DNA of 64,000 nucleotides from Saccostrea echinata (lineage: Eukaryota): the NCBI RefSeq assembly GCF_033153115.1, contig NW_026889794.1, positions 4,526,001 to 4,590,000 of the forward strand, read 5' to 3'. Positions within the stretch are counted from its first letter, which is position 1, and the number at the start of each line of letters is the position of its first letter. The position numbers and the translations under genes were made by a program. Shown piece after piece: positions 3,564 to 52,500 of this stretch. Under the pieces are notes generated by a model that was not told the origin of the DNA, did no database searches, and worked only from the letters and a program-made list of their open reading frames with translations.

Positions 3564-6500
3564 TTACCATAAATCATACAAAGTATTATAGAGACAAATT
3601 GTAAAAGTCACAAATATCATAACAAATGTCCACCACTGTTTCATTGTTTTCTGACCTGAAAATACAGACAAACAACAATCAAAGTAATTAAAAAAAGGAC
3701 TTGTAACGACTTGTAAAGACGAATGTGTGCCATTATTTTAACCAATCAATTACTACTATTAAGTTTTTTTCACAAATTAAAAAAGACTCAAAAGGAAAAA
3801 GTATAACACTGCTGATTCTAGAATTGTTTTCGATCATCACAAATTAAGCAATATATGCACGCACCAAAGACTTGGAAAAGCGCTTCAGACGTCCACTAGG
3901 TTCAGGAATAACATGATTGTTTGAAATTCTTTATTGAATTTATAATTGGCAGTAACGAATTGATGTCCCTCGAAACACTCAACAGAAAACTATGCACTTT
4001 TCAAAGGACTCTATTTTTAAAATTTAAATATCCATGAAAACAACAATTATTTCACACATATTTACACTCTATTCAGAGCGTGAGTTAATCTATGAAATAT
4101 AAATAAAAAAGCTTATATATAATATTTATTCACACAAAGTAGATATCTCTTGTGCATGTCCCTGTGTACAGTTTTGTTCGTAAAACGTAACATTTCAGTA
4201 ATACACACGAAATCAATGTTCTAGTATTTATAAGTTTCTTTTTATCATGAGATATTTCTTTTCTGTCTGTTTCTTAAGATCAAATGAAAAAAGGAGGTAT
4301 ATGTATTCGCAACAAATCAATAGAAAGATGAAATAAAAACATCTTATCGTTGTTAGTGTCTCTAAATATACCTAAATAATTGTTAGAGTAAAAACGCTTT
4401 CCAAATAACAATTTAATAAAGTGATAAGTTTTAAAATTACCACATTTCGTCTACCATATGCCCATAAATTACTATTATTAATCATTAATTATGTTTAATG
4501 ATATACATACCATTGTTGCATTTTACGCCTTTCATCAATGGTTTAATGATGGCTTGTAGATACGAATGAACAAATGGCACTGCTTTGTCATCACAAAGTT
4601 CTTTTGTTTTATCATCTATACAGGTCGTCATTTTTGCTGCTACTCTGTGAATTCATTCAATATCAATTTAAAACTTTTAAAAATGGTATTAATCCTTTTA
4701 TTCAGAGATTTACAAGATTTTGCTATGCAAACAATTTTTAACGATGAATTTATCTGCAAGATTTTATGGTATTTTGGAGCAGCTTAAGTTTAAAGTCTTA
4801 GTCGTAAGTTCTTTAAATGGATCACTTAGATTGACGTCTCAAAATAAAACACTTGATTATTTCCTACAGTGATACAGTAGGCCTAACTTTACTTCCACTC
4901 AGATTTTTATGTTCTTAGGTAAAAAAAAATTACCTGCATTTTTCACTAGAAGTATCAGAACCCCTTTTGGTGTCTTGCTTTTCGATTAGTTGTTGGACGA
5001 GTTTCAAGCAAGACATTATGCTTGTTTGATTCACCACAAATTTGGTCATCACACATTGGAAATTTTCAATAAATCCTATTCAAGAGGGAAAAGAGGAAAA
5101 AAAAATAATATCACACAAATACCTTTTGGTTCCATCTTTTACTCATTTTTGCATTTTAAACCTATCTTCCAACTCGAGAAAAAGAAAGTCGAAACATTTT
5201 TTTCAGGCTATTTGGACATGTTTCATAAGAGGATCGTTACCGATATATATTAGAATGAAATTATCTATGTCCAAATAGCTGGATCTCACTTCCATTCTCG
5301 ATGACCATGTAGTGCAGCGAGAATTCCATTCCATCGAAAGCAAATTTTAATAACTTGCCTAGATGGCCGAGGGGTGTAGCGCGTCGTTCTTGCACTGCTA
5401 CGAGGCAGGTTCTACAGGTCAAGAGTTAAGTTACGGGTTTTGGCGGGAGTGAGTATCCTTGTACAGTGGGCCAAATGGTGTTTCCGCTGCTTCTCGCAGT
5501 TTATTAAAATAAAGCAGTTTTAAGCTTTTAAAGAAGTAATTTTCATGGAGTTGTCAAATTAATCAATTTTAAGGTAACAGAAGTAAAAAAAAAATATTTT
5601 CATTTTTCAAGACATGACCTTGTTAACGATTTTGTAACTCATAAATGGATTTTACGTCATTTTAAGCTCACCTGAGCCGAGGGTTCAAGTGAGCTTTTCT
5701 GATCAAAATTTGCCCGTTATCTATCGTCGTTGTCGTCGTCGTTGTCGTAGTAAACGTTTCACATTTTCATCTTTCTTCTTCGCAAGAACCACTGGGCCAA
5801 TTTTCAGTCAAACTTGCCCCAAATTATCCTTGGGTAAAGACAATTAAAATTTGTTCAAATGAAGGGCCACACCTTCTTCCAAAGGGAGATAAAATGATTT
5901 CGTGAAAAATTAATGGAATAATTTAAAAATCTTCTTCTTAAGAACAACTGTACTTGTACATATGAAACTTATGTGAAATCATTGTGAGGTAGTGTAGATT
6001 CAAAATTTTCATATCATGACCCCCGGGGGTAGGGTGGGGCCACAAAAGGTGATCAAAGTTTTACATAGGAATACATCAGAAAGGGTGGGACAACAATGGA
6101 TGATCAAAGTTTTAGAGAGGAAAACATAGGGAAAATCTTTAAAAACCTTCTTCTCAAGAACAGCACGCCATGATTGGTCATATTTATATTGAAGCATCCT
6201 CAGGTAGTGTAGATTCAAATTTGTTCAAAACATGACCCCCGGGGATAGGATGGGGCCACAATGGGCGATCAAAGTTTTACATAGGAATACACAGGAAAAA
6301 TCTTTAAAAATCTTCTCAAAAACAACGCCATGATTGGTCATACTTATAAGGAAGCATCATCAAGTAGTTTAGAGTCAGGTTTGTTCAAATCATTACCCCT
6401 GGGGATAGGGTGGGGCCACAATGGGTGATCAAAGTTTTACATAAGAATACAGGAAAAAATCTTTAAAATTCTTTACAAGAACAGCAAAGCTTTGATTGGT

Positions 6501-9500
6501 CATAATAATATTATTGCATCCTCAGGTAATGTTGATTTAAATTTCTTCAAATCATTACCCTCCAGGAGAATAGAGGGACCATAACAGGGTATCATAGTTA
6601 TACAACGAATATAAAGAATATTTCGATAAAATTTTCATCTTAAGAACAGTAAAGCCATTATGTGTCATATTTATTCATAGGCATCCTTAGGAAATGTAGA
6701 TTCAAGTTTGTTCATATCATAACCCCACCCCACTCCTCCGAACTACTTTTATATTTAAACTTTTCAATACTGAAATGATTTCTGCTTTTATCTACCAACG
6801 TGTGAGCGATGTTGCCCCTGGGCCTCTTGTTTGTGTTAGTGACGTTATGAGGAACTGAAGTTTTTAATAAGGGCCACAAAAAGTGCAAAAAAAAGAGAAG
6901 AGTACAAGTAATATGCTCTTGTGAAACATGGAGATTTGAAAATGTCACGATTATTTTTGGTTATCTTCTGCAAAAATTCCTAGTGCCTGTAAAGTGTTGT
7001 AGCATTCCATAAAAATAGGAAAATTCCGTATATATTGACAGTTTGAGATCCCCCTCTCCCTCTGGAAAGCAGACTGTATAAATTTGTACTTTTAATATAT
7101 AAAGTTCGGTATAGTATTACTGATCACATACTGTAATTTGAACAAGAAAACTACTGTAATATTTTTGTAATTTGCTTTGAGGTCAAAAAAACATTTCCCC
7201 ATATAATCCCATGGTAAGTGCAACTGTATTTTGAGATGGTCCCTTAAGATAGAAAAATATGCAGACAGTATATTTATGTTCCCCAAACGAAGTTTGGGAA
7301 CATATTGTTTTTACTCTGTTTCTTATTATTATTATTATTATTATTTTTCTTCCTGGGTACTTTTTTGTCCGTGAGTGATCTCCGAAACTACACATCCGAT
7401 TGAGGTGAAACCTTTTTAGGGTTAATAGGTATGTTATGTAGATTTGCGGAACGAAGGTCATTTTTCGCGCACGCGCATGCACGTGCGTGCGCGTGCAATG
7501 CGTAAAATGACCAATATACTTGATATAGCTGTAGCTTTTATATTTTTTGACGAAATGCTTTGATACTCAGAATATAAGGATATATTAATAGTGTAGACAA
7601 GATGACATGGTCAGAATGCGCATGCATGCACGTGCGCGCATGCGCATTGATTGAAATAACCAATACAATTGATATAGATTTAACTTGTACATTTTTTGAT
7701 GAATTGCATTGAAACTCAGAATATAAATATATATTAGAAGTGTACACAAGAAGACTTGATCAGCGCACACATGCATGCACATGCGTGCACGTGCGCGCGC
7801 GTGCAATGAGTAAAATGACAGATGTACTTGATATAGCTATAACTTTCATATCTTTTGATGAAATGCGTTGATACTCAGGATATCAGGAGATATTAAAAGT
7901 ATAGACAAGATGACATGGTCAGAATGCATATGCATGCACGTGTGCGCATGCGCAATGATTGAAATAACCAATACAAATGATAAAGAATTAACTTGTACAT
8001 TTTTTATGAATTGCTTTGAAACTCAGAATATAAATATATATTTGAAGTGTTCACAAGATGACATGATCAGCGCACACATGCATGCACTTGCAAGCACGTG
8101 CGCGCGCATGCAATGAGTAGAATGACCAATATACTTAATATAGCCAAAACTTTTACATCTTTTGATGAAATACTTTAATACTCAGAATATAAGGATATAT
8201 TAATAGTGTAGACAAGATGACATGGTCAGCATGCACATGCATGCACGTGCGCGCGTGTGCAATTATTGAAATAACCAATACAATTGATATAGACTTAACT
8301 TGCACATTTTTTGTTGAATTGCATTGAAACTCAGAATATAAATATATATTATAAATGTAGACAAGACGACATTGTCAACATGCACATGCGCGTGCATGCA
8401 ATGCTAAAATGACTAATATACTTGATATAGCTGTAACTTTTATACTTTTTGATGAAATGCTTTGATACTCAAAATATGTAGATATATTAATAGTGTTGAC
8501 AAGATGACACGGTCATCATGGGCATGCATGCACGTGCGCGCGCTTGCAATGCGTAAAATGACAGATATACTTAATATAGCCGATTTTTTTTTGTATCTTT
8601 TGATGAAATTTGAATATAAAGATGTATTAAAAGTGTAGACAAGTTGACATGGTCATTTTGAACATGCATGCCCGTGCCCGTGCGGGCGCGTGTAATGCGT
8701 GATAAAACCAATATACTTGATTGTTTTATTTAATGAAGCTTACAGGGAATAAGACACCAAAAGGAAGTTGGGGAGCGTTTGGGGAACATCTGTAACGGTC
8801 CCCGTTACAATTAATACTAGTTTACTGAAACTTTGCATGTACACTGAAATCAGTGTATGCTACACTTGCTATAAAGTAAAGAGTTTCTTTATTTTAGTTT
8901 TTACACAATAAAACCACAGTCGGCTCCCTTAAGTGAATTTTATTATGCTTTCTATATTATATTTCTTCACTAAGGGCAGCTATGCTAGTTTGAGTTATTA
9001 TGTATTAAATGTGCCTCAATTAACAGTATTGAATATCTTTGAAAAAAATTGTAATATATGTTCTTTAAGGTCTATAATTTTCTTCTATAATCATATAAGT
9101 TGAAACCCCTCTTACCTTCCTTTCCCTCAGAACATAAGAAGCTAGCAGCATTTAGAGATGTTTCTACAGAAAGTGTGCTTGGTGATTTACATGCGGTCCC
9201 GTATTCCTGCACACAGTTGCCTAACTGTTTTTGAATGCTGTGCCATTCAAGAAAATATATAAAATTAGAAATTCAGTACAATTTTCAACATCAATTGTTT
9301 ACAATTTCAGATATTAAAAATTGATGTCAAACGGTATAACGTGAAAGAATATCGTATCTAGGTGGTAGTGAGAGCACACCATATACATGTACATTTAATG
9401 ATGAAACGTTCAAGGGAATTTGATGATGATTTCAAATAAGTTAATTTTAAGAAACATAACATAATTTCAAACATGTATATTGATGAACTGAAATGAAAAT

Positions 9501-9870
9501 ATCACACTTGCCTACAAAATGTATGTACTGTTTTTTTAGTATCCAACGTCTTAATATCTGGTGATTTAAACATTTTTACGATTTCTTGTATAGAGAATTG
9601 GTTCATGCAATTCCGAATCCCAGTATTGTCACAATCTTGAGCAACTGTCCCTAAAAAAAACGAAATTAACTACACAAACAAGCAATTAATCACAAAGTGT
9701 GTGCATATAGCATGCTTAACAAACATCAAAAAATGGTTGTTAACTATAGGTGTCTTTGAAGAGTAAATATTTCCAACTTACAAGCAATAGTACTATGAAT
9801 AATTATTTTACTTACTTGACACAATGGCAAGCGATACAAGAAGGACAAATACCAAGCTTACAGATTTCAT
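3564..9870 (-). CDS. Gene A: secreted 12-Cys helical-module protein (DUF19/CPG4-like by recall), ~227 aa, hydrophobic C-tail (possible GPI/TM)
   Basis: Six exons spliced by hand: 9870-9816, 9650-9512, 9237-9116, 5075-4934, 4644-4511, 3655-3564 (684 nt, open frame). MKSVSLVFVLLVSLAIVSRTVAQDCDNTGIRNC...FLCSEGKEGFIENFQC...TTCIDDKTKELC...VKCNNGQKTMKQWWTFVMIFVTFTICLYNTLYDLW*. Signal peptide present; exon sizes, phases and Cys positions match genes B and C. Intron 2 has a GC donor. Confidence 0.85.
5662..6832 (+). mobile_element. HINE/Helentron-like non-autonomous element carrying ~165-170 bp Cg170-like satellite monomers
   Basis: 5' agctcacctgagc..aagtgagc, (gtc)n microsatellite, tandem units with catgacccccgggg..ggggccacaa (6015, 6231, 6391 and others), 3' gtgagcgatg..gcccctgggcctcttgttt hairpin; T-rich flanks. 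Confidence 0.8.
7274..8823 (+). mobile_element. HINE-like element with a ~150-bp tandem array rich in (GC/AT/AC) alternation, in gene A intron 3
   Basis: Inverted repeat atgttccccaaacg / cgtttggggaacat, (att)n microsatellite, 3' hairpin tgtaacgg..ccgttaca; units caagatgacatggtc at ~7598, 7747, 7906, 8054, 8213, 8362, 8500, 8640. Confidence 0.8.
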
Positions 9871-11895: not shown

Positions 11896-12154
11896 AAGTC
11901 TCTCTCACTGAATAGAGAAGTTCGTTGAATTCCATGTTTGTGTACATGCTCGTCATATCAGTTATTAATAATGCGTTTGTTGGTAGGCTCCTGATGATGG
12001 CGGATTTGCAGCTAATTAATAAACTATCAAAATCATAAGCCTCGTATATATCATACCACCAAAACACTAGATTAGTGTCGAGTCAAGTGATCTGAGGTAC
12101 GTGGCTGATGGGAGCCACTTTCTTTGGAAAAAATTATTACTATTTTTTACTTAC

Positions 12155-16917: not shown

Positions 16918-19900
16918 CTACTGTAATGAAATATCAGTTGTAAATGCCCATACGAAAGTTTGGATAAGTATGAAAAAGCAATTGTTTCCCAGAGTAGGAG
17001 AGGTTATGGTACTTGAACTTTCACCATGCTGGTCCATATAAACATTGCTGAGATATTTTCTTGGAGAATAACCTGCAATTAATAACATTAATGTTTTCTG
17101 ATATTTCAACTGTTACTCATTTAGAAACAAAGGTAAAAATTGATTGATATGCAATATTTAGATCATAAGTTTTATATTACCCTGAAATCTAAATTTTAAG
17201 ATATTCTTTATCCGGAAAGTTTGATTTTAATAACTGTTGATGATGAGATATTTTCACCTCTAAATTCTATCTTGCTTACACAATATCTTTTTGATATGAA
17301 GTTCAATGATGAACTTGTCAGTTTAACACTTAACAGAATTTTAAAAACATAGATGTTTTGAATACGAGAAATTCAAGTATGTGCATCAAATTTAAAATTT
17401 CGAAAAATCGCAAATATTTCAAATGTTGAAACTAAATGTTTGAAATAAATTTATTTTATGATAAAGATTGTGAAAATTTAGATTTAAAAATGTTTCGGAT
17501 GAAGCTACAAAATTTAACAAAATTTTATCCATGTTTCGAAGCTAAAGTAATTGGAATTTGAGTTTAGATTTTAGACTTAGATTAAAGTTTTTAAATGTGG
17601 GATTTTGAACAAAAAATTAAAAATTCCAAAAGTCTAAAACAGAAGTTAAAGCAAGTATAACAGAAACCGTGGACCTACCATTTTCACATGTAATATTTGA
17701 CATCAATGGTCGGATTTTTGCTTCAAAGTAAGCATTCGTGAATGCTCCTGCTTCCTCACCACACAATGTCCTGCTTTTCTCTTGAAAACAACTAAATGTC
17801 TCATTTGCTGCTCTAAAAAATTAATATTAAAAATATATAAAAATACTGAACATTTGAGAGCATAACTTACATGAATGTTTCACACTTATATATTCCTTCA
17901 TGTAATGCATAAAATTATGCTTAGAATGCAATTTACAAATTAAGTACATGTATTACTTAAGTTTTTTTTTAAATGCTTGTTTTTTTTAAGAGGGGAAAGA
18001 ACCATGTTAAATTGCATCTATTTTCAACGTACGAAAATATACCTGCATAGATTTTCAGAAACTTTGCTTGAAATGCCAGAACCACTTGCATCTGCCTCAA
18101 TTATGTTTCTCGTTAGTTTTGCCATGTAAGTTTTTGTACAGAAATCAAGACCTTTGTTAAGGAGAAGGTCGTACATCACACACTGAAAGTTCTTTACGAA
18201 GCCTGTAAAAGACAAGTTAATCATTTTATTATTGTTCCATTAAAATGTACAGTTTCATTCAATTACTTTTTATTTTAAATTTCGGAAGCATAATTCAAAC
18301 TCTTAAGGTACTTTTACACTTAAACATATACCTTGTCTTCCTACAGAACACAGGAAGTTTTCAGCAGAAAGCATGATATCTATGTCAAGAGAGATGCTGT
18401 TTGTAAAATGACATGTGGTCTTGATGTCTTCCAAGCAATGGCTGGGCTTCCTTATGATACTGTTCAATACAGAAAAAAAAGGCTTATTAACCACAGCACT
18501 TACTTGAGGAACATTTTTCTCTTTTACCCTTTCATAAGTTACCGAGCCAAGAATTTCCTTGACTACTCAAAAATCATATTCATTAATAATGGCAAATTCT
18601 TTCTAAGTCGATTTGAATACTCAAGAGCAACTTACAGCAAGCACAATTGTGGAATCAATTTGGGAATTTTTCCGGTAATAACTAATTATTTACAAGCTCT
18701 TGGGGGTATAATGTCATATTTCAGTATTCATTGAGGTTGTAAGACCTTGTGCAAGAGACATCCACGAAAACCACTCAAATATTGTACATCTAAGAAAAAA
18801 TGATTTCATAATTTCTCCTCTTAGTATTAAATCAGCTTTAGTAGTATGCATTATCTCTATAGAATATTATGGAACGTACATAGAATCAACAACTTTTATC
18901 AAAATCTTCAAGAAAAATTGATCCAAATTCACATTAGTTTCATAACATTAAACAATAAAGACGAAAAACTTTCTTAAAGCATTCGCTTAAAGACGGCTTA
19001 AAGGTGGTTTAAAGAGGGACTAAAGAAATTGATTTCTATACTCCACCATTAAGGATGAGATTTACTCAAATGATAAAAAATTCCACTGATAACAACGAAA
19101 ATCCAATTATTGTTCATTGTAGACCTAGACTGTAGTGTTTTTATTCACTTTCAAATAATTAGATATTTCTCTTCAAATAATAAAACCGTTCACGGTAGCT
19201 CAGTCGGTAGAGCGCTCGCTCCGTGATCGGGAGGTCGTGAGTTCGAATCTCGGCCGCGACAGACCTAAGTCGATAAATTAATAGGTAGCAACTGTTCCTT
19301 CGCCATGCGCTCGGCACTTTGGAGTGAAAAGTTGCGGGTCTTTCGGATGAGACCTTAAAAACCAAGGCCCCGTGTCACGGCAGGCGTTGGCACGATAAAG
19401 ATCTCTCACTGCTCAATGGCCCTGAGTGCCGAGTAAAGGTCAAAATTTGAAGCCCTTCACCGGTATATGGTGACGTCTCTATATGAGTGAAAAATTCTCG
19501 AATGGGACGTAAAACAACATACAATCAATCAATCAATCAAATAATAAAATTTCAAATTTTCAAATGGATACTGAGTCGTAACATGAATATTTTGTCTATT
19601 TAGAACAATCTTTTGATCTAACGTATAGTACTTTATAGCATTGCATTTCTGCCAACTAAAACCCTGCGTAAACGTCATCCTTAAGCAACCTTTAAGCTGC
19701 AGCTAATAAGTGCTACATGTAAATGTCCAAACTGTTTTAAGCCACCATTAAGTAACCTTTAAGCTCTAGCATATAGGTGCTTAATGTCCCAACTTCTTTA
19801 AGCCATTTTTAAGTAATTTTTAAGCCACTTTTAAGTAATCTTTAAGCCAACTTTACGCAACTCTTTAACCAGTCTTTAAACTACAGTGTATTAAGTTAAA

Positions 19901-22900
19901 ATTATCTTTAAGTATCATTTACGCTAGTAAAATCTTACTCAATTCATAATGCTGACTATCTAATTTTAATTCTAAGTTCTGTCAATGCGTATAAACATAA
20001 ACACTTAGAACTGCTCCTGCAAGTAATCTTAAAAATTTCGCTACCAAAAAATCTTTGTTTAAATACTTGTTTTAAATTATTTTTATCCTAAACACATACC
20101 TTATAATTCAACGAAAAGAAAAAAAAAAACACGTTATAATTTTCTTTCGTGTGTGGAGAGTCATGTTCCGCTGCTGAATTCATAAGAAGTATTATACGAT
20201 AGAGTTCTTTTGTTCTTAAATTAAAAGAAGATTTTGAATATTCCGTAAATCGAATAAATCGAACTTAGATATTAAATTACACGCACTTTGTTTTGATATA
20301 AACGCATATTGTTATCATTTTTTTTTAATTAAAGACGACCTTTAATCCATCATTAAGGACCTTTAAGCCGTCTCTAAATTATTTGAAATTAAAAGCGTAT
20401 TACGTTCCTTATGGCCACAATTTATAAATTCTGTGTTTTTACTGTGGATAAATCGCGGTAATTAACCAATTATTGACTCAAATGAAAACCCCTGGATTAA
20501 AAATCTAAGTTAATTAGATAGCTATCACGTGACCCTGTGACGTCAAAGGCGACAATGGCTGATCAGCTCTTCATTAATCTTACTAAAATATACGCGATAC
20601 AACCTGAATTTTCTGCGTTGTGAATGACCAAATCACTTATTTTGTCGATATAAAATTGAATATTCAACCTTATATGTTAGAATTGTAAGCAAGAAAAAAT
20701 CTGAAAAATCTAACATTGTAAAAATAGCAGCGACGATAGCGAGGGAGACGCAGCGAAGACGAAGAAACTCGCCATAACAATGCAATTTGATTTGTCATCT
20801 TATCACATGTATTATTTGATTCACAAATTAAACATTATATAACTTTGTTATTCTTCGTTTTGTATATAATATTAATTTATGCAAGTCTTCATATGTTTTT
20901 TAAAGGATGGCGATCTTGAAAAATAATTTCCCGATCACGAAACATTGCCGTAATTAGAGCTACAGCTAGGTTCTAAATGTTTTGAATAAAAAACGAAAAT
21001 ATCTTAAAAGCCTTATACCTTAGAACTAATTAATGTTTCTATGATAATTGAAAATCATATAAGGAATTAATTTTTTCAGCATTTTTCGTAATTTAGCTGC
21101 ATTTGTCATTGATAACTCCGTTAATAGTGTGCATATTCTCATCTCTCTATCACCGAATTGTCGCCTATGACGTCAGAGCAGTATTTCGCCGAAATCCGAC
21201 TGAAATATGCATATTGCCGTATTTGAATTTCAACTCTTAATATCTCTTAAAATATGCTTTCAACAACGATTATTGTATTCAGCATTTTGATGAATAAGGT
21301 TATAGATAATATTTTTCATAAAATTACGATTTTTGAAAGATCATGCGATAAGTCCTTTAAAGGAAGTTTTTCTTGTGCAAATGCTGCAGCTGTTCTGAGT
21401 ATTCTCTTAATATTCAAAATATTTCCTTTCTGTAGCTTTGCTAGCATGAATACTAAAGGCCGTAAGTACATACAGCAATGTAACTAGTAACTAATACGCT
21501 TGTTTTTATGCGACAAGCATCAAGAAGATGTTTAGTTACAATGAGAACAAATCAACATGATTCATGAAACAGTTTAACTCCATGTTATATACACAGAGAC
21601 ATTTCATTGGTCAGAAAGTTTCATTCTTGAGTTCAAGTTTTCTCAGGATGCCCATACTTTAAATTTATTTCATATTCAAAACTATTTGAAAGTTTTATCC
21701 CTTTATCAGAGACTTAAAAATATGTAATAAATAAGGTTTTTACCTGCAATATTCATCAACAGTCTCTTGAGCATTTAAAATCTTTGAATTGTTCATTAAT
21801 CTTATTTCCTTTATGAAATCTGGTAGAGATGACTGTATTAGGCAGTTAGAAAATCCGTCTTTGTTACATCCATGCACATGTAGTAGCGTCTCTAAAATGA
21901 AAATATCCTTGTTCTTTCTGAATACTTAAGTCAATGAGATTACTTCTTGATTAATTTTAAAAGTATCTTAAACTTCAGAATGAATAACATGTCAAATGAA
22001 GTGTTCACATTACATGAATATGCTGAATATTGATTGTGTTTCTTTTATTTTGTAAAGAAGTTCACTCTCCTGATACACAGAACAGTGATGTAATTTAAGC
22101 AAAAGTTACCACTGCTCAACTTTTGAATTGAAGAAGATAACATCAAATGTGTAATGATATTTCAGACTAATTTGAAATAACTATCATTCTGCATGGTTCT
22201 TCAAGGGTCGTCGTTTAACTTGGCGACCCCGTGCCAGTTAAATTCCTTAGTTTCACAGTTAAAAAATTAGCGCCATAGTTCCGCTAAGTAAAAAATTAGC
22301 GGCTCAGTAAGATCGTCGTCTATCATGAAGATTAAATTTTATGTATAAATTTATAAACTCAAACATGAACTGAACCTCCATATTATGTACTGTTTTTTAA
22401 TGCTTAACCGTTATTTAGTCCCATTAGAGACAATGTTGGGCTTGCACATTCAATTATCTGCTAGGCCTCGCTGGACTTTACGCATGAATGAAAAGAGACA
22501 ACCTTTTTCACACTCCCCGGTAATTGCAAATGATTTTTAATGCTAATTTTAAAACTACTTAGCTTTACTAAAGATAACCACGTCTCTAAAATTGCATTGG
22601 CACTGTAAGTCAAACATCGTACGTGTATCGTAATCATGTATTGCTGTAAAGTTGAAAAATGAACGATAATCCATCAAAGCAGCATTTTATGACTTCAAAC
22701 AGCTAATTTAAATTTGCATTGATACTGTAGTCAACCGAAACCAATATTGCAAATATATCTGGCTGATGAAAGCTTGATTGTGCTAGAAATTCCTCTGTCC
22801 TGACACTGTAAGTGTATAATTTACATTTTGTAAAAAAAAAAAATATCTTTTGAAAAAATCAGATTAAACACTTAAAACTTGTTATTACTGGTACTAATAT

Positions 22901-25125
22901 TTTCAGATTTTTATAAGCTTATTATTTTTTGTTTTTTTAAGTACGTTGTGTTGTGTTGGCTGGGGGCGGGGTGTCAAAGAAAACTTGTATAACGGAAACG
23001 TTCTTGTTTCTCTTTTACACTATGTTAAATTTGATATCCATTAATTGATTTTAATTATCGTTTGATTTAAATCCCAATTTGCCAAATATTTAATACAACT
23101 TGTGTATTACAATAGTGATTCAGAAAAGTTGTGTTTTTCAATTTATTCATTGTAACTTCCCGAATTCAGTCGCTAAAAGACCGCGAATATTAGCATTTCG
23201 CATACGTCTTGCGCCACAGTTAAATTTGAAATGTTGAGAATTCGAACCCTGATTCTGAAGTTTGACATCACTCGTTATAAGGGATTTCAATTCAATATAC
23301 ATAATTTTGTCTTTCTCTATTAGAAGATTTAGTGAATTATTTATTTTTTAGCGAAATTATGTATTCGCGATTGATTTTTGTACATGTAAGTAAAAAAAGG
23401 TAACAAAAAACAAATTCATGAATGAGATTTGGATTTTTTTTTCAATGGTGAGAAAATATGAATCCCTCTTAAATGAGTAGACATAAAATATCTAAAAACA
23501 CATATGACGTTCTTTTGTCTTTTTTTCAAGCCACAGATAGCTTAATTTAAAAATATACATACTATTTTCACACGATATGTCCTTCATCAATGGCTGAATC
23601 GCAGCTTCCGTTTTTGTTCGCATAACCTTGCTTGCTTCGTCACTGCATACTCTTTTTCCTTCTTCTTCCATACAAGTTACAATTTTATTTGCTGCTCTAA
23701 ACGGTTATATATAGTTTTATAGTTTTAAATTTGATATAACTTTAAAAAAATGTATACACTAACACGTTTGAGAGAAAAATATTACCTATTAAAGATTTTG
23801 ATCATTAGTAATCAATAATTGATTGTTCATATTCCCATTGAAGGTCATGATACTTTAGGATAATATTTGAATACATAACTGAAGCAAAATTGAAAGTATG
23901 TTTTCATAATCATTACAACTTTTACAAAAGCTGTGTAAGACTTCTTATTTTTCTATCATGTGATATATAATTGTACATAAAATTTACCTGCATATTTTGC
24001 CATAATTATTATTACCACTTCTTTGGGCCTCTATGAAAGAATCGAATAAATCCAACATATCTTTTTGGCAACTCTTAAAACTCGTTTCATTTTGGATATG
24101 ATCGAGAATCACACATTGAAAATGATCAATGAAATCTGCAAAAGAATTTTTTAAAGCTGACCTATATTCAGATATGTAAAAGGTCAAATATATAAATCAA
24201 AGAAAGCTATAATGTTTTTGAGATTAGCGTATTAGCAGTGTTAGAAGTGACAAATCTGTATTGCAATATTTTTTCCGTACTATGTGTCAAGCACAATGTC
24301 ACTATTTATGAACCATAGTACCTCGTTTTCCCTCTGAACACAGGTAGTTTATCAGAGAAAGCGCCATGTCTATTGATAAAGTGATTCTGTTTGTAGATAA
24401 ACATGTTGTTTTGACGTCCTGTAGACATGATGTTAAGCCCTTTGTTATGCTTTCCAAGAAAAGAAAAAAAAAAAAAAATTAAAAATTTAATATTTGGTGC
24501 ATTTAAAATTTTCATATTAAAATCACTTTAGGGTGCAAATGATTACTTTGTAATAAACATTGAATTAAAAATCATATAGGCTACATTCCCTACTATTCAT
24601 TTAAAGAGTAGTAAAAGAAAACGATATGGATTTTTTTTTATATGAAGCACCTTTCCATTTAAATACATGTAGAACGATCCAGAGAACGTCATTAACTATT
24701 TGTACATGTATTAAGGATTTTGTATCAAACTAAATCAGCACATGAACTAACAGTTGGTAACTTACCTACAATATTCCTCTACAGTATCCTGAGCTTTCAG
24801 TATCCTTAAAATGTTTGGTGAGTTAATCTTGTGTGTATAATTTAGTAGTGATGGTTGCATAAAGCAATTAATGATCTCCGTATGGGTACATCCTTTAGCA
24901 AAGGTCCCTAAAACAAATGCTTCAATTATTTCTGGTAAATTCATACCCTCATCTATTAAATACAGTACCTAGGATAGAGGCAATAAATCGTGAAGAGACG
25001 TCCGATTTGTTGTGTCAGTTTTGCACGTTTTACAAATTAGGATTATTTCGCTATAAATAAATGAGTTAAAACTTGTCTCACTTACCTAGTATACTAAGAA
25101 GTGTAACTAGTAGGAGGTAGACCAT
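16918..25125 (-). CDS. Gene B: secreted protein with two tandem 12-Cys modules, ~438 aa, Ser/Thr linker and hydrophobic C-tail (possible GPI signal)
   Basis: Ten exons: 25125-25086, 24907-24766, 24449-24322, 24135-23988, 23696-23563, 21891-21744, 18459-18332, 18202-18043, 17812-17679, 17072-16918 (1317 nt, open frame, all GT-AG). Starts MVYLLLVTLLSILGTFAKGC; ends SSSTITSPTLGNNCFFILIQTFVWAFTTDISLQ*. ORF-track fragments 24762, 23984, 18303, 18024 and 16918 are its exons. Confidence 0.82.
19186..19536 (+). mobile_element. Full-length tRNA-derived SINE (Meta + Deu/Nin-like body), (CAAT)n tail
   Basis: A box gtagctcagtcggtagagc, B box gagttcgaatc, central tcggatgagac..aaacc..ggcccc..taaagat, and a 13-bp TSD tcaaataataaaa (19173-19185 / 19537-19549). 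Confidence 0.9.
20446..21356. mobile_element. Kolobok-like non-autonomous element, left end unclear
   Basis: Right end gcgataagtcct|ttaa; internal inverted pair tgacgtcaaaggcgacaat (20538) / attgtcgcctatgacgtca (21157). Confidence 0.45.
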
Positions 25126-27977: not shown

Positions 27978-30111
27978 TCATAATCCATTTGTGACTGGTC
28001 TAGGAAGGCTATAGAGGATATGACATTTACAGTAATCCTCAGGACAGTGTCCTGCTTTACATGTGTTTAAACACCAGGAAGCAGCGTCATCTTTGGCGCC
28101 AAATTTTGACAAGACTGGCTCACACACAAGAACCTGTGTTGGAATTTGGCAGTCACAGGTACAGAGGTTCTCGGGACAGTTACCAAGCTTACAGTTGGTT
28201 TCACACCAGCCATCCATCTCCTTTTTTGTGCTCTCCAGGACGGGTGTGGCAGAGCTTTGAGGATATTTATAACAATATTTTATACAGGTTTTTCCAACGA
28301 TGTGCACATTCTGTGAAGTGGGATATTCATTTGGTGAATGACCTGTGATGGAGAATCATAAAAAATTATTGAATAGGAATAAATANNNNNNNNNNNNNNN
28401 NNNNNNNNNNNNNNNNNNNNNNNNNNNNNNNNNNNNNNNNNNNNNNNNNNNNNNNNNNNNNNNNNNNNNNNNNNNNNNNNNNNNNNNNNNNNNNNNNNNN
28501 NNNNNNNNNNNNNNNNNNNNNNNNNNNNNNNNNNNNNNNNCAAATGTTCAGATGTACAAATTTGTATGAAGTGTACTCACTGTGGTTACACTGTACGTCT
28601 TTCAGTAATGGTTGAAGGGTTGCTTCGAGATAATGATGGACAAATTGACCTGCAGATTCCCCACATGATATCTTAGTTTTCTCCTCAATGCAAGTTATTG
28701 CTTCTTTTGATGTCCTGCAAGATAAAACAAGCCCCATAAAACTCTGTAAAATAGCCGTAATTATCGAAGCATCGAAGCAAAATGAAATACATGTCATTCT
28801 TTTTTACAAATTTGAAATTTAATCTTTATCGTGTTTCAAATGAAGAAAAATTCTTAATCAAATGTCTGAAAATAGTATTTTACAGTTATCCCTAAAACAG
28901 CCCCATAAATACATACATTGCTTTAGCAACAGAAACTAAAAAATGCATTAATCCAAAGCAGACATTAAAACTACGACATCGTATATTTTCAGGTATGAAC
29001 CTTTACCTGCATTTTTCACTGGAAAGATTCCGACCATTGTCCTTGGCCTTGCTTACATTTTTGGACAGCTCCATCATATCATTCATACAAGTCAATGTGC
29101 TGGTTTGAAACGCATCAGTCATCAAGCAGTGGAAATGATTAATGAAACCTGTACCGTTGTGAAAATACAAATTCTATGTTTATTTTACCTTTCTTGATAT
29201 TATTTGTTTTTTATTGTGCAAGATGGTAATTTTTTTATTAGTTGCAGTTTTTATATTTGTAAGGTAATTACAATCATTTTTGACTCATTAAAAATTAAAG
29301 AATGCTACATTGTTTTACCTTGTTTACCATCTGTGCACAGAAAATTTCCAGCTGATATGATGGTGTCTAATGACAGAGTGTCGTCGGAAGGACAATTAGT
29401 TCTGTAGTCTTGCATGCATAAATCGAGTTTTGTTTGAGCACTAAAAGAACAAATTTACGGCATTTAGTCGTTTCAAAGATAAATTTCGAGAGAAGAATTT
29501 GAAAGAAATAATGTTTTTCAAACGGTTCTGAATACAGTTTATGTATCAAAAAGTGTGCAAGTCTTCAATATATTCATTTTTACAATTTCTTGAAGAGAAA
29601 AAAAAACAAAAAAAAAACGATCCATTTCCTTTAAGCTCCTTTCTATCAGACCTCAGTTAAAAAAAATCCAACTACACAAAAAGTGGACTTACCTACAATA
29701 TTCCTCAGTTGCATATTGGGCATTCAAAGTCTTCAAGAATTCAGGTGTTCTAAACCTGTTCATGATTTCTGGCACAGATGACTCACTCCAGCATTTTAAA
29801 ACACCATTAATGTCACACTGTTGTACAGTGGTTCCTAGTAAAAATATATTTCGCGATTAATCCAAAATGCTATTCAATTTTTTTTCCTAAGGATCGAGGC
29901 CCTTAAAGTTTCTATTAATTCATTTAATTTTAAACACAGGAATTGGCAAAGCTTCTTTAATTTCATTGTGTAATAAAAGTAAAAAATATAGCTTTATCTT
30001 GTTGATAAAATTTAGGAGTTGCTCTGTTTCTTAGAACATCTGTTACTTGACCGTGGTTCTCTGCTTACCTGCTATAACGACAGACAACACCAGTATAGGT
30101 AGCTGCTTCAT
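27978..30111 (-). CDS. Gene C: secreted 12-Cys module protein with two C-terminal WCxx[NT]CxxGxCPxxxCxC repeats, ~315 aa
   Basis: Exons 30111-30069, 29834-29693, 29440-29319, 29148-29007, 28714-28581, 28342-27978 (948 nt, open frame, GT-AG). [21 protein letters not shown]...; tail [21 protein letters not shown] ... [20 protein letters not shown]. The last intron contains the N gap. Confidence 0.82.
28386..28540. other. Assembly gap (155 N)
   Basis: Run of n inside gene C intron 5. Confidence 1.
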
Positions 30112-30767
30112 ATTTGGTGAATACTTCATTTCTATTTCTGTCTTATTATTGTCTCAAATATAATAGTAAGAAAACCATCCCCTCAGAAGTGAGGTAATTG
30201 TTTTAAAAACACTCTTATTAACCTGTTTACGTCAGAATACGTGCAGCACAGGAAGTTGACCTATCATCTTAAGATATTGTTTCACGGTACAAAAGAAATG
30301 ACGCATTTCACCTTGAAAACAAATATAGTTTTTTTTATTGGTCAATTTAAGGCGGGGGAGATGTACTGAGGATTTCCGGATTGTTAGAGAGGAAGCAACT
30401 AATATATTGGGAGTAAATAAATAAATAAAAGAAATGAATATGAAAATGACAGTGGTACGGTAAGGAGGATAACCATTACTGTTGGAAACAAATGTCATTC
30501 CAGAAGAAATGAACTGGAGCGGATAAAGAAATGAAACATTTTCTTGCTGAAACGTCGTATCTCATTTATTCCTTAAAGCTTTTTACATCTTCTAAGCATT
30601 ATATCATGATTTAAAAGCAAAACAAAACAAAAACTATATTTTAAAAAGACATATACATCAACATGAATATAAATATGAATATCTGCATTTCCTAGGATGT
30701 CTGCAGGTTAAAACATCTCTAAAACAGGCAATATTGAGAGACTAGAAACTTTACTCATTAAAAAGTA

Positions 30768-35182: not shown

Positions 35183-36214
35183 CTATAAAACTGAGTTTGT
35201 TCTCCGATACGAAAGCAAAATATTGTCTGAACCTTTGGATCGGCGTTTGAAATCTTCTATGTCAGTGATAAAATTACGAATCTTGCTCTCCAAAGATCCG
35301 TCGCCTTTTGCCCAAGCGGCCATTTTTAACTTTCTTTCCTCTTTTTCTTTGTCGGGTTTACCGAATTTCTCTTCGTGTTGAATTTTGCTCATTTCCTCTA
35401 ACTCCCGCCTAGATTTTGTCTCCTTCATTTTCCGCGTATTAACACCAAACACTACCACAGGATGAATATCCACTGCCTCTAGAACCTCGCCATCTTTTAG
35501 CTGTCTTAATTTGGATGTCATAGGACGTCTCGTCCTACCACCAGATCTCTTTAAATCTCGAATGTTTCTCGCACGATCTCGTATGTTGGATGGTGCTGCA
35601 GACTGGGTTTGTCGAATGTTTGAAATAGACATGGACTGACGATGAAGGTCATCAGAAGGAGAATTGTTCTGTTTATTAGAGTTAAATCTTCTAAATGATA
35701 ACTTGAACATGGCCACATTAACAGGTCTAAGTTTAATTTCATCCTCAGATGCTTCGTTGGAATTATTTGCGTCTGTAGTATTTTCTTCCTTCTCTGTTGA
35801 CACTCTACTCTGATTGGAGTCTAGATTTTCATTTTTTGATTTAGATATCTCATTTTTATTAATATCCGTCTCCTCTTTCTCTGAAATAGTTTCTCTCATT
35901 ACAGCTGAAGTTCCACGAGATTTAGAAAAGGATCCAGATTTACTGCTAGACTCGTACAACTTGACACTGTTCGGTCGGTCTTTCTTTTTGATGGCTTTAC
36001 TTAATTGTTGTATTTCCTCAGCCTGACGCCGGGCCTCCATCAGACTATAATCACTGTCAATCGTGGCCTTGTACTTTGCCTTATGGATCTGGTGAATCCT
36101 ACTTTCCAGTTGAGAGTCCAGCTGGTCATTCTCCAGGTAAGTCTCACTCCAGTCTATTCCGGACTTTTTGAAGTCCATGTCTGAAGCAGACCTGGTTAAT
36201 GTGGGGGCTGACAT
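35183..36214 (-). CDS. Uncharacterised charged/low-complexity protein, 343 aa, single coding exon
   Basis: 1032-nt ORF in AT-rich DNA, K/R/E/S-rich with probable coiled segments. Acceptor tttcag| lies 11 nt upstream of the ATG (exon starts 36225). Candidate 5' non-coding exon donor gtaagt at ~37753, next to a CpG-richer patch at 37790-38040. No family recognised. Confidence 0.75.
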
Positions 36215-39200
36215 TGGTGTTACTTCTGAAAATCAGCAAACACATGAGTAAAGGAAAACAATAGACTTACAATAATGTGAAGTGTATTGTGAATAATAAG
36301 CTGATAATCCAGTCATAATTAGCATTTTAGATTTCAAAGATTTTGCATTAATAGTTTCATGCAGATAGATATTCCTCTCTGAAACAAATCATTTGATTAA
36401 AAAAAATCATTTCATATACATGTACGGGAAATTAAAGAAACATTTCAAGGTTAGAATAAAGTGCATCATAGTTACTTATTAGACTAAGTTACATTTTTGC
36501 ATTGTCAACGTCTTTGGAATGTAAAGAATATTCATTGTAATTAATAGTGCATGTTTACACAGAAAAAAAAATATTCAGCGATGCCATTCAACATTTTTTA
36601 ATTACCTAATTTTGACATGTTATGATTTATAATCACGATTTTGTCATAATAACTTTCACACTAGTACTTACATATATGTACCTGAACACATTTAGCAACA
36701 AACTCTCTCACAGCTATCATTAGGACATTAAACTTTCACATTAATAATCAACATGCATTACAATGAATCCCCATTAGATTTTATTTTAAAGAAAATTCTG
36801 AGTATTGTCCAACATTATTAACCACTCTTTATACCAAGCCATTCGGAAATTGATTTTATTCAAACGATATCAACTTTTGTTTGACACTTTAAATGCAGTG
36901 AAAGACAGGCAATTCAATACTTGCATTTTCAATACCTCTACATCCCTTTTTCTATAACTGCACGGAACTAGGTATTACATTACATCGATTTGAAGAATTT
37001 TAACAAACAATTCAACAAAAGCTGGCAAATGAAGCAGTGATTTGCAATTTAAGGAATAAAGAAAGTTATCATTAAAATGCAATTGACAGGTCTGATGGTA
37101 TATTTTACTTTTTTATTCTCGATAGATCAAGGTACATGAGATTGTATAGTGCAATTTAAAATCTTCTTTCTCAGTTGTCGAAGAAAAGAATTTCATATTT
37201 AGATCAATTTATCAAGTCCTTTTGTTGTTTGTAATAAAAATTTGCTCTCAAGACACGTTTTATTAAGAACTTTGAATAAAGTTTCTGAAATTTTTAAATA
37301 AACGCCTTGACATATTTAGTAAATCATCGATGTAAGGATCAATTTTGGTTGAAAATAACCACTTAATATTTGATTTTGCGATACCTTAATTCCAAGGCAA
37401 ACAATTAAATTGAATTTTACTAAAATCAAACACAATACGTAATGTTTTATTAAACATTCTGATTCGTTATCTATTGAGATGATATATACCGAGATACAAG
37501 TTGACATTCTCTTGCGATATTAAACTAACAAAAAAATGTGTTTAACATTTTAATTTGATGGGACATGTATACACTCTTTCACATGATATCGGTGGTCTGT
37601 CCGTTAAATGATTCCAATACATTTAATTACACTGCCATTTATTTTTATTTTAAAAAGGTGGATTCGTTGTTTTACGTGTATTACATCTTTTATAATAAAT
37701 GTTAATATCACACACGTCTCTTTACTCAAAAATAAATATTAAAAGTTACTTACCTATTTAAATCAACCAAACTTAAAAACTATTCATCCTCTGGCGCAGT
37801 GTCCCTTCGATCTGGTATTAAACTCCCCGTATTTACCTGATTTGTTTAAAATCTGAGAGTGGATAGATATCTTTTCATTTTACTGCAAATAATAAATATG
37901 TAATCCTGTATTCGTCCTCGCGTCAGTTTGAATTCATATGTCAATAAATTCGACATTTAGAGTAGCTGGCGCGGAAAGTCTTGTCCATTAGTTAACAACA
38001 AAAATAAATCCGCCAGACAGTTGCGCGACTGTCGCACAAAGAACATGTGGATGTTATTTAGTATTTGTGTTTAAAAATCACCCGAGTTTCAATGGTCTCT
38101 AAATCAAATATTTAATTCATATTTTCTGTAGGCCGATTAAATTCCTCCGATCATGCATTTGGTGATCGAATACTTTGATAGATATGAAAGGAAAAAGATC
38201 TCTTAAAGAGAGAATGAATTTTTAAGTGTATCTCTCCGTAGCAATCAGGTATTCATTCACATTTAGGCGCAGTGCATATTGAATTTAAAGTTTATTAACT
38301 ACATGTCCGAAATTTGTCTTTGGCATTTTTTTAATCAAATATACATAAACTCATCATATACTTTGTGCAAATGTATAAAATTTTCCTGCACAAATTTAAA
38401 TTGAAGAAATTTATAAATATATATATCAAAATACTATACAAACTGCACAGAAGTCTGTAATAAAAAAAAAATTTGCCATATCTATTTTTCCCATAGAGTC
38501 TCAATAATGATTACTCAACTAATGTCAAAGAAGAATCCTTTAAAAATTACCAGTTTCAAAGTGTTCAGAAATCTCCCTTTCATGAAGGCATTCAAGCATT
38601 GACTGGAGATTCAATTTAACTAAAGCAACAAATATTTAGAAGTTTTGCAGATATTTTCAAAAATCAATCACCCCTCCCCTACCATCTCTGTATTTCTCCC
38701 TTTCATTGAAACCCCCAAAATGTTATGGACGTTTTCTCAAACGTAGATAATGAAAAAAAAAAGAAAGAAAGAAAAGAAGAGAAAAAGATTAAAGTCATAC
38801 AAAATGTCCCTGTTATGTAAACATATATATCTTGTATGCATTTATATTAAAATTGCACATATAGTAAATCAAGATGAAATGCTTGCATAACGTAAAAATT
38901 TTATTTGCTTTTTGCGTCACCTCAAGTATCCCTCCAAAAATTACATAGCAGCAAAATGAGGTACTTTCAGAGTAAAAAAGTATTACATAATTCTATTGGT
39001 ATGGTCTCTTAAGTCGTTGCAGTTTAAAGGCCGAATTTTAAATTTATTTCTAATTTATTTGATTTGCATCGAACTAGCAGAATACGTTTGACTTTGCGCG
39101 AATATGCATGAAAAATTATTTGAAAGGTTTTCCTCCACACCATGAATAACTGAAGGATATTTTGAATTATTTGGATTTTCCGAACAATGCATATATTAAC

Positions 39201-39997: not shown

Positions 39998-42900
39998 TCA
40001 AAGCTTCGTGTTCATCGTTTTATTTCGTTTGTGAATGCCACTATTTTCAGTGTACCATAATTTAACTTCTATCAAAGACTGTGGAAGCTCCGTACCCCGT
40101 GTTTCAGGTACACACAGGATAAGTAATGTCACTATGAAGCACATTACAGAAAATATTGTTCCTGGAACCCAGGGTATTTCTTCGGCCTATAAAAAATTAG
40201 GAAAACATTGGAATACTTTTTTATAACCTTAGAGTTTTATAAGAATTATATTTTTAAAATATATTTTACCAACGTTCCAGCAAATGGTGATAATATTCCA
40301 CCAATTCTTGCAAAGGCTGAAGAAAAACCTATGCCAACGTTCCTAGAGGAAGGACAAAAATCATATTTTCAAACCTTCTTTCCTTATCGGTAAACCAATA
40401 TGTATTTATTACCCTTACTTTTACTTATCAGAATAGTATCTGCAGTATGTTTTCACTTTTATAGCAATAAGCACAAGCCTGTAAGAATCATGGCTGATAT
40501 CCCCCTTCATAAGCTGAAATGCTTCCAATGGACTCTAAACAAACCAAAACACGGCTAAACTTGAAGAAATATCTTAAAATTTAACCTACCTCAGATTTGT
40601 TGGATAGAGCTCAGGTGTATACAAGAAAAGAGTGCTGAAAGACCCTGCGATTGCCATTTTCCCAACAAATGTTGTTACCACTGATAACGTTTGAAGTGCA
40701 CTGTTATGTCCTTAAAATATTCAAATAGTCATCTTCCTTTATCAAAGTGTCGCACACACGTATTACTTTGATACAGGCTATTCCATCATGGAAATACCAA
40801 ATACTGTTTTATAAATTATAATTACATGGTTCACTGTTGTGCTCAAAGTATTTGCGGAAGTTGGTGGACATTGCCGAAATTAAAAGCTTTGTGTACCTAA
40901 ATTTTATTATAATAAAAATCTGTATGTAGTGGTTAAGGACATACGCAACGTAGTTTGATCTTAAATGTCTTTTTCCCTGAAGTTGAAGAGTTCCAATACG
41001 TGAAGGAACTGTGTGCTACATTTTAATGTCTACATATGCTGTTGTACACTTTTTCTAAAACAAGTTTGGGTAAAAAAAAACATCTAGAATACATGTTTAG
41101 TAATGTTTGTATATTTTTCTTTGAATTATACAAGAATTTTCATCAATTGATATTTTTTTCAAAACTCCTGGTAATACATGCTGATTTTTTGTCTACGAAC
41201 ATCTGATGACACTATAATCTTAAATTAAGAATATCTTGAAAAATTATCAGTAGGTGATGTACGTTGCTTATGTCCTTTAGTTTAGTTCAACTCCTGAATC
41301 AACATTGGTGCATATTTTAGCATATGACATAGACGAAACATATGTAAAAGTCAAAATGACATTTTTCTTTTGAAATGACAATGGATTGAAGACGGAAAGA
41401 AATATCCCTAGTTAAAACAATCGAATTTAAAGAAAGATGGTCAAAGGTTAATTAAAATAATATAATCAAGGTTTTTTTCGGTTTCTGGGTCTACATGCAA
41501 TACCATGATACCAAGTTTTTGCGAAACTGGAAAGATTGAAATTATGGACCTTCCCAATTTTCAGAATGTCCACAGAAAGAGGGAAGGAAAAGTAACTGCG
41601 TTTAGTCATAGTGAATTGTGAAGGGTTTCAAATGTTCAATGTTAAAAACAATGCAAAAAAACTTTAGATCATGTATTTGGTTTTGAAATGCATGGTAGAT
41701 AGAGAGAAATGTCCATGGCAAGATTGTCCTGCTTGGGAGTACTCTTAAAAAAGGAGATGTGTTGTAGATGGGAATAGGAAACAAAATATTCTCATTGATC
41801 AATCACAAATGGCTACCAAACAAAACTGTGTTGATCGACACTGTAGGTATATCAACCTAAAATGTCTGTAATCTTTTGGGGATGCATCAATCCTATGACT
41901 CTGTGAAAATTTGATGGGGATATAATTGCTTTGCAATAAATCAACATATGCATACTCGACCAAGGTCTATGATCAGGCATAGGATGAATTCACCATGCAT
42001 CGGACACCCTCGCACTTCAACAAGTTCTAGCGATATCGCTACCGACCGAATATTATCAAAATGGAACTTAACATGTAGTATGTGATTAAAATATAAATTT
42101 TTGACACAATCGTGTGCTCTTTATTGAGAAAATATCATTAAAACCCGATTTTTTCGAAATAAGTCAGAATTCACCATGGATCGGACAATATTCACCATGC
42201 ATCGGACATACGGTATTTTAACCAGAAAAATATCACACCTTGATCTCGGTGCTTTAAAATGAGTGAAATCGAAACATTTTTATCTTTTATTAAAAAATTA
42301 AACTTCTAGTTAAATTTGAATTACTATTTCGATCCACAAATGTGAAGAGATTTTAGGTGCATCACATCGCCTTAGAAAGGCTTTACAATGCTAGTAATAT
42401 GGCAACTCGCGCCTTTGTCTCGTGGGTTATCATCATCTAGTTTAAAGAAATAAATTGGGTCCACTTCTAGTCGTCATATATCGATAACTTGTATTTTCAC
42501 TTAAAATTTAGAGTTTTCATTTTCTATTTTCGTAAAAAACAGCTGTCATTTGGGTTTTATATGAGAATGGAAGTGATTACCCATGCATCGGAAAATGTCC
42601 GATGCATGGTTAATTTGTGTCCGATGTACGGTGAAATGAACATAATAGTAAAAAACAACTCTAAAAGTTATTATACAAACATTGAAGTAGAATTTTTGAA
42701 AAATTTCTGTAAAAATATCAATCATTGACAAATTTTACCTAGGCCCGACTCGTTCCGTTGAAGTCTATTTAAAAGACCGACAACTCTAAAAATTACAAAA
42801 TCGTAAAATTCTGGTTACTCCCCTTTGATGATGCAAAATATGACGTAATTTCAAGGCCATTCTTGTGGTATTTTTATCACAACATGGAAATAAAAATCGG

Positions 42901-45289: not shown

Positions 45290-45333
<44 letters not shown>

Positions 45334-51924: not shown

Positions 51925-52500
51925 ATGTCGGATGAGAACACTAACAATGTAATACTTAACACCATCAACAAATGTGTTTTGAATGAAGGGCAAATTTCAT
52001 TTAATGTCAATGCTATTAGTACTTCCCATCGTCTTGGACCTCCTCGTCAAGACAGGCCAAGGGACATTATTGTCAGATTTGTTCGATACAGTGACAAGGC
52101 CCTTGTTTACAACAACAAGAGCAACCTAAAGGGCTGGAATGACAACCCTACTAATTGCTACAAAATCTATATCAACGAGGCACTGACTCGAAGAAGGTCC
52201 ATGTTGTTCGCCAAGACCAGAGAAGCTGTCCGAAATCACCGGGCTAAAGGTTGTTGGACATATGACGGAAAAATCTATATTAAGAAAAACAATGACAAAA
52301 AGGCCGTTATTAAAAACATAACTGATTTGGACCGTCTTATAGTTACAAACACTCAGGCAAGGGAGACGATAGATGAGGCTGAGGACGATACACAGGAGGG
52401 GTTATATTCATCAGTGGTTAAGGCCACCTCTGCAGGAGCATCAACCAGCTCTCTCTCCGGAAATCAAGGTACGCCCCATGGTGAGAATTTAAACGGCTGA
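51925..52500 (+). pseudogene. LINE ORF1 C-terminal portion
   Basis: HRLG...RPRDIIVRF...IYINEALT...CWTYDGKIYIK is typical of CR1/L2-group ORF1; lies immediately upstream of ORF2. Confidence 0.8.

Follow-up and report, generated by a model that had tools for sequence, protein, structure and literature searches.

The window, a 64,000-nt stretch of Saccostrea echinata DNA, carries three paralogous genes, here called A, B and C, that encode a cysteine-rich module predicted to be helical. This locus raises the question why such a module should end in a putative hydrophobic tail in some copies and in two cysteine repeats in gene C, and where these tails would place it. An earlier interpretation of the sequence (in the following: the original prediction) had proposed that the repeats bind a polysaccharide and were shuffled onto gene C in place of a membrane tail.

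Gene C and its helical module

Gene C is a real, conserved and expressed gene. Its six exons (Table 1), separated by introns of phases 1, 2, 1, 2 and 1, join to an open frame of 321 codons, and the product is 100% identical to NCBI LOC133201688 (Saccostrea echinata, uncharacterized). Orthologues are found in S. cucullata, Ostrea edulis and Crassostrea virginica, i.e. the gene is present in four oyster species. The N-terminus has a hydropathy of 2.67. The terminal exon comprises 365 nt; the intron before it is of phase 1 and ends in an AG acceptor. According to transcript contigs, the 3' UTR extends to at least position 27801.

Splicing was assessed with four transcript runs from at most three samples and two studies, whose RNA nature was guessed and rests on intron-precise joints. 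Since intron-precise skipping is the behaviour of mRNA, the runs can be used as splicing evidence for gene C. In all four runs, contigs skip positions 28580-28343 exactly (CT..AC on the plus strand). This means that the N stretch of the assembly at this site is intronic and, in these transcripts, covers no hidden coding exon. Single contigs from runs X1 and X4, which represent one sample, reach from exon 2 to the 3' UTR. A coding exon concealed beneath the N stretch and an assignment of the terminal exon to a separate gene were both ruled out by the transcript contigs. The predicted junction of 28581 to 28342 was thus recovered, and translation, acceptor and contigs agree with two repeats in one exon. 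One low-depth contig of run X2 (window 29834-30222) joins a site at about 30222 to exon 2 and bypasses the putative signal-peptide exon.

Table 1. Positions of genes A, B and C and of the parts of gene C within the window
Feature	Position	Strand	Description	Support
Gene A	3564..9870	-	single-module paralogue; candidate hydrophobic last exon 3655-3564	sequence, not reads
Gene B	16918..25125	-	paralogue; helical module present twice in tandem; last exon (17072-16918) hydrophobic; lacks the Cys repeat	
Gene C, exon 1	30069..30129	-	start codon (ATG); N-terminus hydrophobic, likely a signal peptide; phase 1 at end	junction in 2/4 runs
Gene C, exon 2	29693..29834	-	helical module part 1; phase 1->2	downstream junction in 4/4 runs
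Gene C, exon 3	29319..29440	-	helical module part 2; phase 2->1	downstream junction in 3/4 runs
Gene C, exon 4	29007..29148	-	helical module part 3; phase 1->2	downstream junction in 4/4 runs
Gene C, exon 5	28581..28714	-	helical module part 4; phase 2->1	translated model and transcript contigs
Gene C, terminal coding exon	27978..28342	-	linker of ~18 aa, two Cys repeats, 14-aa end, stop	
Repeat 1 (C220-C265)	28149..28286	-	8-Cys subtype: 6-Cys core (spacing 22-3-4-4-1) with an additional Cys pair (C220, C265)	
Repeat 2 (C274-C307)	28023..28124	-	6-Cys core spaced 16-3-4-4-1	

The helical module occupies residues 22-200 of the gene C product and is bounded by phase 1 at both ends. Its 12 cysteines are invariant in nine aligned proteins, and the predicted structure is all-helical. 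Foldseek and VIA-align searches with the whole gene C model gave no family-assigning match; the structural neighbours are generic helical bundles (best Z 7.5). In the ESM Atlas, the nearest neighbours of the protein are DUF19/CPG4 clusters with a score of 0.84, below the threshold of 0.9. The module resembles DUF19 (PF01579) and CPG4 (PF15481) in its size of ~180 aa, its cysteine content, its all-helical model and its tandem gene expansion. It differs in that neither Pfam model matches it in four orthologues or four paralogue-type proteins (E up to 10) and in that fusion of these families to the repeat was not found in the literature. A PF01579 search of the genome gave no match, but neither did its control, so that it carries no information. 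DUF19-like is used here as a lead only, and the module is not filed under DUF19. A Pacific oyster 'DUF19 domain-containing protein' is tabulated in PMC10058639.

The architecture had been called unrecognised. Indeed, neither Pfam nor NCBIfam has a model that covers it, and a description was not found; it combines a DUF19-like module with a repeat of a kind described on insect LPMOs. The open-access literature covered here describes the insect repeat, but holds nothing on the LOC identifiers, the fusion or binding by the repeat.

The repeat and its partner domains

The two WC motifs of gene C, WCETNC (start 28208) and WCLNTC (start 28076), lie on the minus strand in a shared frame. The pattern WC-x3-C-x2-6-CP-x2-5-C-x-C matches twice in the window vs. 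not once in 200 mononucleotide shuffles of it, which rules out a motif by chance. The motif quoted in the original prediction is present twice as stated, but it is the back half of a longer unit of ~35-45 aa with six cysteines: a further Cys lies 16-22 residues upstream, and repeat 1 carries an extra Cys pair.

A phmmer search of 1.84 billion representatives (E up to 0.001) matched 85 proteins, in which the regular expression C-x(10-24)-C-x3-C-x(4-9)-C-x(3-5)-C-x-C found 215 repeats. The first spacing is most often 15 (127/215) and the Cys3-Cys4 spacing most often 4 (195/215). An aromatic residue precedes Cys2 in 100% of the repeats (W 88%, Y 9%, F 3%), Cys4 is flanked by G in 81% and by P in 92%, and 72% have an aromatic in the first loop. 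Judged by sequence, repeat 2 of gene C is canonical; its F282, W290, H299 and Y304 are at or adjoin the aromatic-rich positions of the family. Repeat 1 deviates by a longer first loop and the extra Cys pair. Moreover, few of the variable aromatic positions occur in it, which counts against chitin binding. Identities to the orthologues amount to 89/83/70% for repeat 1, 91/78/67% for repeat 2 and 86/66/64% for the helical module, so that the module is no better conserved than the repeats. In P0003, the S. cucullata orthologue, Phe replaces Cys305 of repeat 2, owing to an allele, an error or decay; this, too, speaks against chitin binding.

An AlphaFold model of the 120-aa tail from 47 aligned sequences has a pTM of 0.39. 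Repeat 2 is predicted as strand-helix-strand (pLDDT 83-89) and repeat 1 is modelled less well (pLDDT about 54-76). CxxxC would lie in the helix and CxC in a strand. Pfam has no match for the tail exon or for 17 aligned tails (E up to 10), and no NCBIfam model matches the repeat or gene C. A sequence search of the PDB was without significant match; the best hit of the tail profile was a scorpine domain (E 0.2). Foldseek and VIA-align matched the tail model, at its pTM of 0.39, to no CBM or other structure, which counts against chitin binding, and the ESM Atlas had no match for the tail alone. These missing family and structure matches do not amount to a new fold. A profile search with A2, among proteins of 763-2175 aa only, gave none that scored.

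What accompanies the repeat? According to local profiles, the 85 matches, fragments included, comprise 21 AA15 proteins, 4 GH18 chitinases, 3 helical-module proteins and 57 proteins without a partner. Pfam, run on 84 of them, returned 8 LPMO_10, 3 GH18 (one weak), 1 EGF and 2 sub-cutoff matches. The 57 partnerless proteins include multi-repeat proteins; many are fragments, eight of which are close to the tails of helical-module genes, and some are apparently stand-alone. That 57 of 85 have no detectable enzyme partner counts against chitin binding. P0010 was rejected as a false match that carries no repeat. A search with a tail profile, whose query was enriched in AA15 tails, gave 23 matches: 9 have LPMO_10 and 9 GH18, and Pfam finds no domain in the other 5, four of which are gene C orthologues. 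The tail profile also matches one chitinase-tail profile with a probability of 97.3 (E 1.7e-11).

The S. echinata genome contains 14 repeat-bearing loci, 11 with AA15 and 3 helical-module genes. They derive from 16 matches to a consensus-like query and one from an exon search; a weak match on C27 without the motif was dropped. Nine of the 11 AA15 loci have the AA15 end in-frame; in another, AA15 exons lie immediately upstream, and the last was placed here because of its identity to an LPMO_10 protein. Tail and enzyme end share an exon in most oyster AA15 genes. Both in AA15 LPMOs and in GH18 chitinases the repeat is found at the C-terminal end behind Pro/Thr linkers, and several GH18 proteins carry a single repeat there. 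The cluster of one such GH18 includes a Porites evermanni protein. The original prediction had placed the motif at the C-termini of lophotrochozoan chitin-active proteins (AA15 LPMO-like). AA15 was confirmed as a partner (11/14 loci, 21/85 matches), but the occurrence on GH18 and in Porites makes the distribution wider than lophotrochozoans. As anticipated, the detected partners are mainly chitin enzymes (21 AA15 and 4 GH18 vs. 3 helical-module and 1 EGF).

Several proteins stand apart. P0006 (1459 aa) has 20-21 repeats. P0062 from Argonauta combines three repeats with an AA15-like domain that lacks the usual N-terminal His start. P0022, P0042, P0044, P0051 and P0068 are Ala-rich multi-repeat proteins in which no enzyme domain was found.

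What the repeats may bind

Since the partners of the repeat are mainly chitin enzymes, gene C is likely tethered to chitin. The reading put forward here, with a probability of roughly 0.55, is that the gene C protein is likely secreted and that its two repeats likely bind chitin, by which the predicted-helical 12-Cys module would be held on a chitin-containing matrix. Partner domains, terminal position and conserved aromatics make chitin the likely ligand. Secretion, disulfide bonding and a role of the DUF19-like module in recognition or adhesion are presumed, as is the history outlined below.

Two known modules are instructive. In animal GH18 chitinases, a Pro/Thr linker is followed by CBM14 (peritrophin-A), a small module at the terminus with six cysteines. 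The same description fits the repeat, which occurs on the same enzyme families. It differs from CBM14 in that it has no Pfam CBM_14 match (E up to 10), another Cys spacing and a helix in the model. The combination of AA15 with CBM14 is known (PMC5823890). Insect group I LPMO15-1, an AA15 enzyme, ends in two C-X15-C-X3-C-X6-9-C-X4-C-X-C repeats (Qu et al., 2022, PMC9156745; PMC12955341), which were called unrelated to CBM14 (Qu et al., 2022, PMC9156745). Gene C likewise has two tandem C-terminal six-Cys repeats and agrees with this pattern in the order and in three of five spacings (X3, X4, X1). Furthermore, X15 is the commonest first spacing in the repeat family, which is also found on AA15. 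In contrast, the first spacings of gene C are X22 and X16, and Cys3-Cys4 is X4 in gene C and most of the family, not X6-9 (15/215). In addition, repeat 1 of gene C has the extra Cys pair, and the repeats of gene C accompany a helical, non-catalytic module, with no AA15 domain in the protein. The strict insect pattern has no instance in the 85 proteins, and no named insect protein was found among the repeat matches examined by name. Common descent of both repeats is likely, with the insect side compared by the published pattern only.

A broader proposal is tentative and has somewhat less than even odds. The ~40-aa WC/CP six-Cys repeat would be an unclassified chitin-binding family that stands in for CBM14 in coral chitinases and mollusc AA15 LPMOs and equals the tail module of insect LPMO15-1. 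The array would then represent anchor switching by a swappable phase-1 last exon: in three genes, whose tethers are short, medium and of mucin length, the DUF19-like module may be placed on chitin, and in derived copies on the membrane.

Alternatively, the repeat might be a protein-interaction or oligomerisation module that docks chitin enzymes and helical proteins onto a shared matrix or mucus protein and makes no contact with sugar. Multi-repeat proteins without a detected enzyme domain such as P0006, a mucin-like linker of ~350 aa in one paralogue and an invariant Trp that could serve core packing would be compatible with such docking. It is unlikely, however, given that the repeat sits terminally and behind Pro/Thr linkers on two unrelated families of chitin enzymes. 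A terminal position behind a Pro/Thr linker is the typical placement of a CBM.

Binding of another polysaccharide, be it a glucan or a wall polymer of microbes or algae, which would make gene C a protein for recognition of food or microbes, is quite unlikely. The GH18 partners belong to a chitinase family, and neither GH71 nor any other glucanase was a partner in the 85 + 23 matches. On the other side, fungal CBM24, which binds alpha-1,3-glucan and accompanies GH71, consists of tandem Cys-rich repeats with a presumably similar Cys pattern. AA15 members active on cellulose besides chitin are also in line with such a ligand (PMC5823890, PMC8615602); the ligand of CBM24 is treated in PMC12394665.

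A defensin-like identity of the repeats is highly improbable. Cysteine-stabilised alpha-beta defensins have the signature C..CxxxC..GxC..CxC, and antimicrobial units of this kind, released from or displayed on a carrier, would fit the C..CxxxC..C..CxC order of the gene C repeats, the predicted positions of CxxxC and CxC in helix and strand and the scorpine domain as top PDB match. However, this match is not significant, the repeat is partnered by chitin enzymes, each repeat has a net charge of -1 and is fused in a 321-aa protein instead of forming a cationic stand-alone peptide, and the Cys4-Cys5 gap of four residues is too short for the usual hairpin. The fold searches with the tail model (pTM 0.39) did not list a defensin fold of helix plus beta-hairpin.

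Chitin tethering, the reading preferred here, bears on a wider class of enzymes. C-terminal regions of unknown function are present in 51% of AA15 LPMOs (PMC8615602), and many such regions or X modules are unassigned (Sabbadin et al., 2018; PMC8615602; PMC10154629). In the available text of these three sources, the gene C-type repeat is not named among them. The repeat is a recurring unit in such AA15 tails for which Pfam and NCBIfam have no family model. If it does bind chitin, it would constitute a new CBM family and provide the first clue to the location of the oyster DUF19-like helical proteins; if it does not, gene C is an annotated but uncharacterised domain combination. With its compact two-repeat tail, gene C offers an easy construct for binding work.

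The gene array and the history of the tail

On contig C45, the module occurs 14 times in tandem within ~200 kb (4.352-4.556 Mb); all four exons were recovered for 11 copies, and 3 are partial. Several inner copies are near-identical or damaged (in-frame stop at ~4474 kb, apparent frameshift at ~4457 kb), and exons of the copies near 4503 and 4380 kb were not recovered. On the coding strand of a 275-kb region, the repeat profile matches only three genes, gene C at one end and two at the other; one opposite-strand match (E 0.16) was disregarded. Both far-end genes have the same 8-Cys + 6-Cys tail as gene C, and so do their orthologues. The linker is of medium length in one (orthologue P0013 of S. 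cucullata) and mucin-like in the other (orthologue P0096 of O. edulis). A further protein, P0072 (831 aa), combines two modules and EGF repeats with a plain two-repeat tail.

Hydrophobic tails had been described for both A and B. For gene B, the last exon was found spliced in two of four runs, and 8/9 junctions are supported among the matches listed; an interpretation as two genes was ruled out by transcript junctions. Runs X1 and X2 hardly cover gene B, but this was not taken as evidence on its expression. The last exon is moderately hydrophobic (hydropathy 1.73 vs. 0.97 for gene C), and this putative tail is likely membrane-anchoring. For gene A, the exon is a candidate only, supported by a paralogous hydrophobic candidate exon in one other copy of the array. 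For the remaining copies of the array, a last exon was not identified. An intron of gene B contains a short SINE- or MITE-like repeat (window 19190-19540) with very many transcript contigs.

A module tree was calculated with 18 rows; the 3 partial copies were excluded, and of the included copies one is apparently frameshifted while the last exon of another lies far away. Eight tail-less modules form a single clade (100/96) that is sister to the gene C orthologues (100/99), and the other tailed genes lie outside. Gene C is accordingly 36-42% identical to tail-less copies vs. 31-35% to the tailed paralogues. One change of state suffices to explain the distribution of the tail, and with a midpoint root or a P0072 root this change is a loss. 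The rooting rests on one long-branch outgroup, P0072, which was itself found via its tail; a search of the own genome with P0072 gave EGF-region matches only and hence no tail-less outgroup. Since the tail-less copies are nested beside gene C, the tail is probably ancestral. Its loss or replacement by hydrophobic tails in the A/B lineage, which is more parsimonious, is considered probable on these sequence comparisons. The 8-Cys subtype of repeat 1 in all three tailed genes points to one origin of the tail.

These data do not support the predicted gain of the tail by gene C alone: two more array genes and their orthologues share it, and the copies without it are one clade next to gene C. The corresponding scenario, in which the membrane-tailed form is ancestral and the gene C lineage gained the repeats by exon shuffling, is regarded as doubtful. 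The phase-1 boundaries would permit it, and attaching P0072 to the stem of the tail-less clade lowers the log-likelihood by 10 units without being rejected (p-AU 0.09). However, both the shared repeat-1 subtype and the closeness of gene C to the tail-less copies argue against it.

Under loss or replacement in the A/B lineage, exon shuffling is likely to be the first origin of the fusion, based on the phase-1 ends of the module and on two symmetric phase 1-1 exons beside an AA15 gene. These exons (L014:1518-1912; C54, about 49.135 Mb) carry one repeat each, lie 3-4 kb downstream of the AA15 gene and are presumably joined to it. Hence, a phase-1 exon with the repeats may have been added to the module at an early stage, before Saccostrea and Ostrea diverged. 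Later, a gene-C-like copy would have lost the repeats or swapped them for a hydrophobic, GPI-signal-like exon and then expanded. The derived paralogues would be held on the membrane, so that the last exon may decide whether the module is displayed on chitin or on the membrane.

The window contains further features. A reverse-transcriptase-like fragment, recognised by eye, is located between genes A and B (10923-12082, minus). A LINE-like element at 51856-56257 on the plus strand shows, again by eye, ORF1-like, endonuclease-like and reverse-transcriptase-like frames in pieces. An open frame of 349 aa (35186-36232, minus), charged and of low complexity, is probably a single large exon. Exons at 40001-46363 (minus) presumably encode a major-facilitator, SLC22-like transporter (motif DKFGRK). 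Finally, tandem short Cys-rich exons at 58585-59175 and 63658-63867 (minus) share CHEDRCTCD and possibly encode small secreted proteins; one of them is followed by a His/Pro/Gly-rich end.
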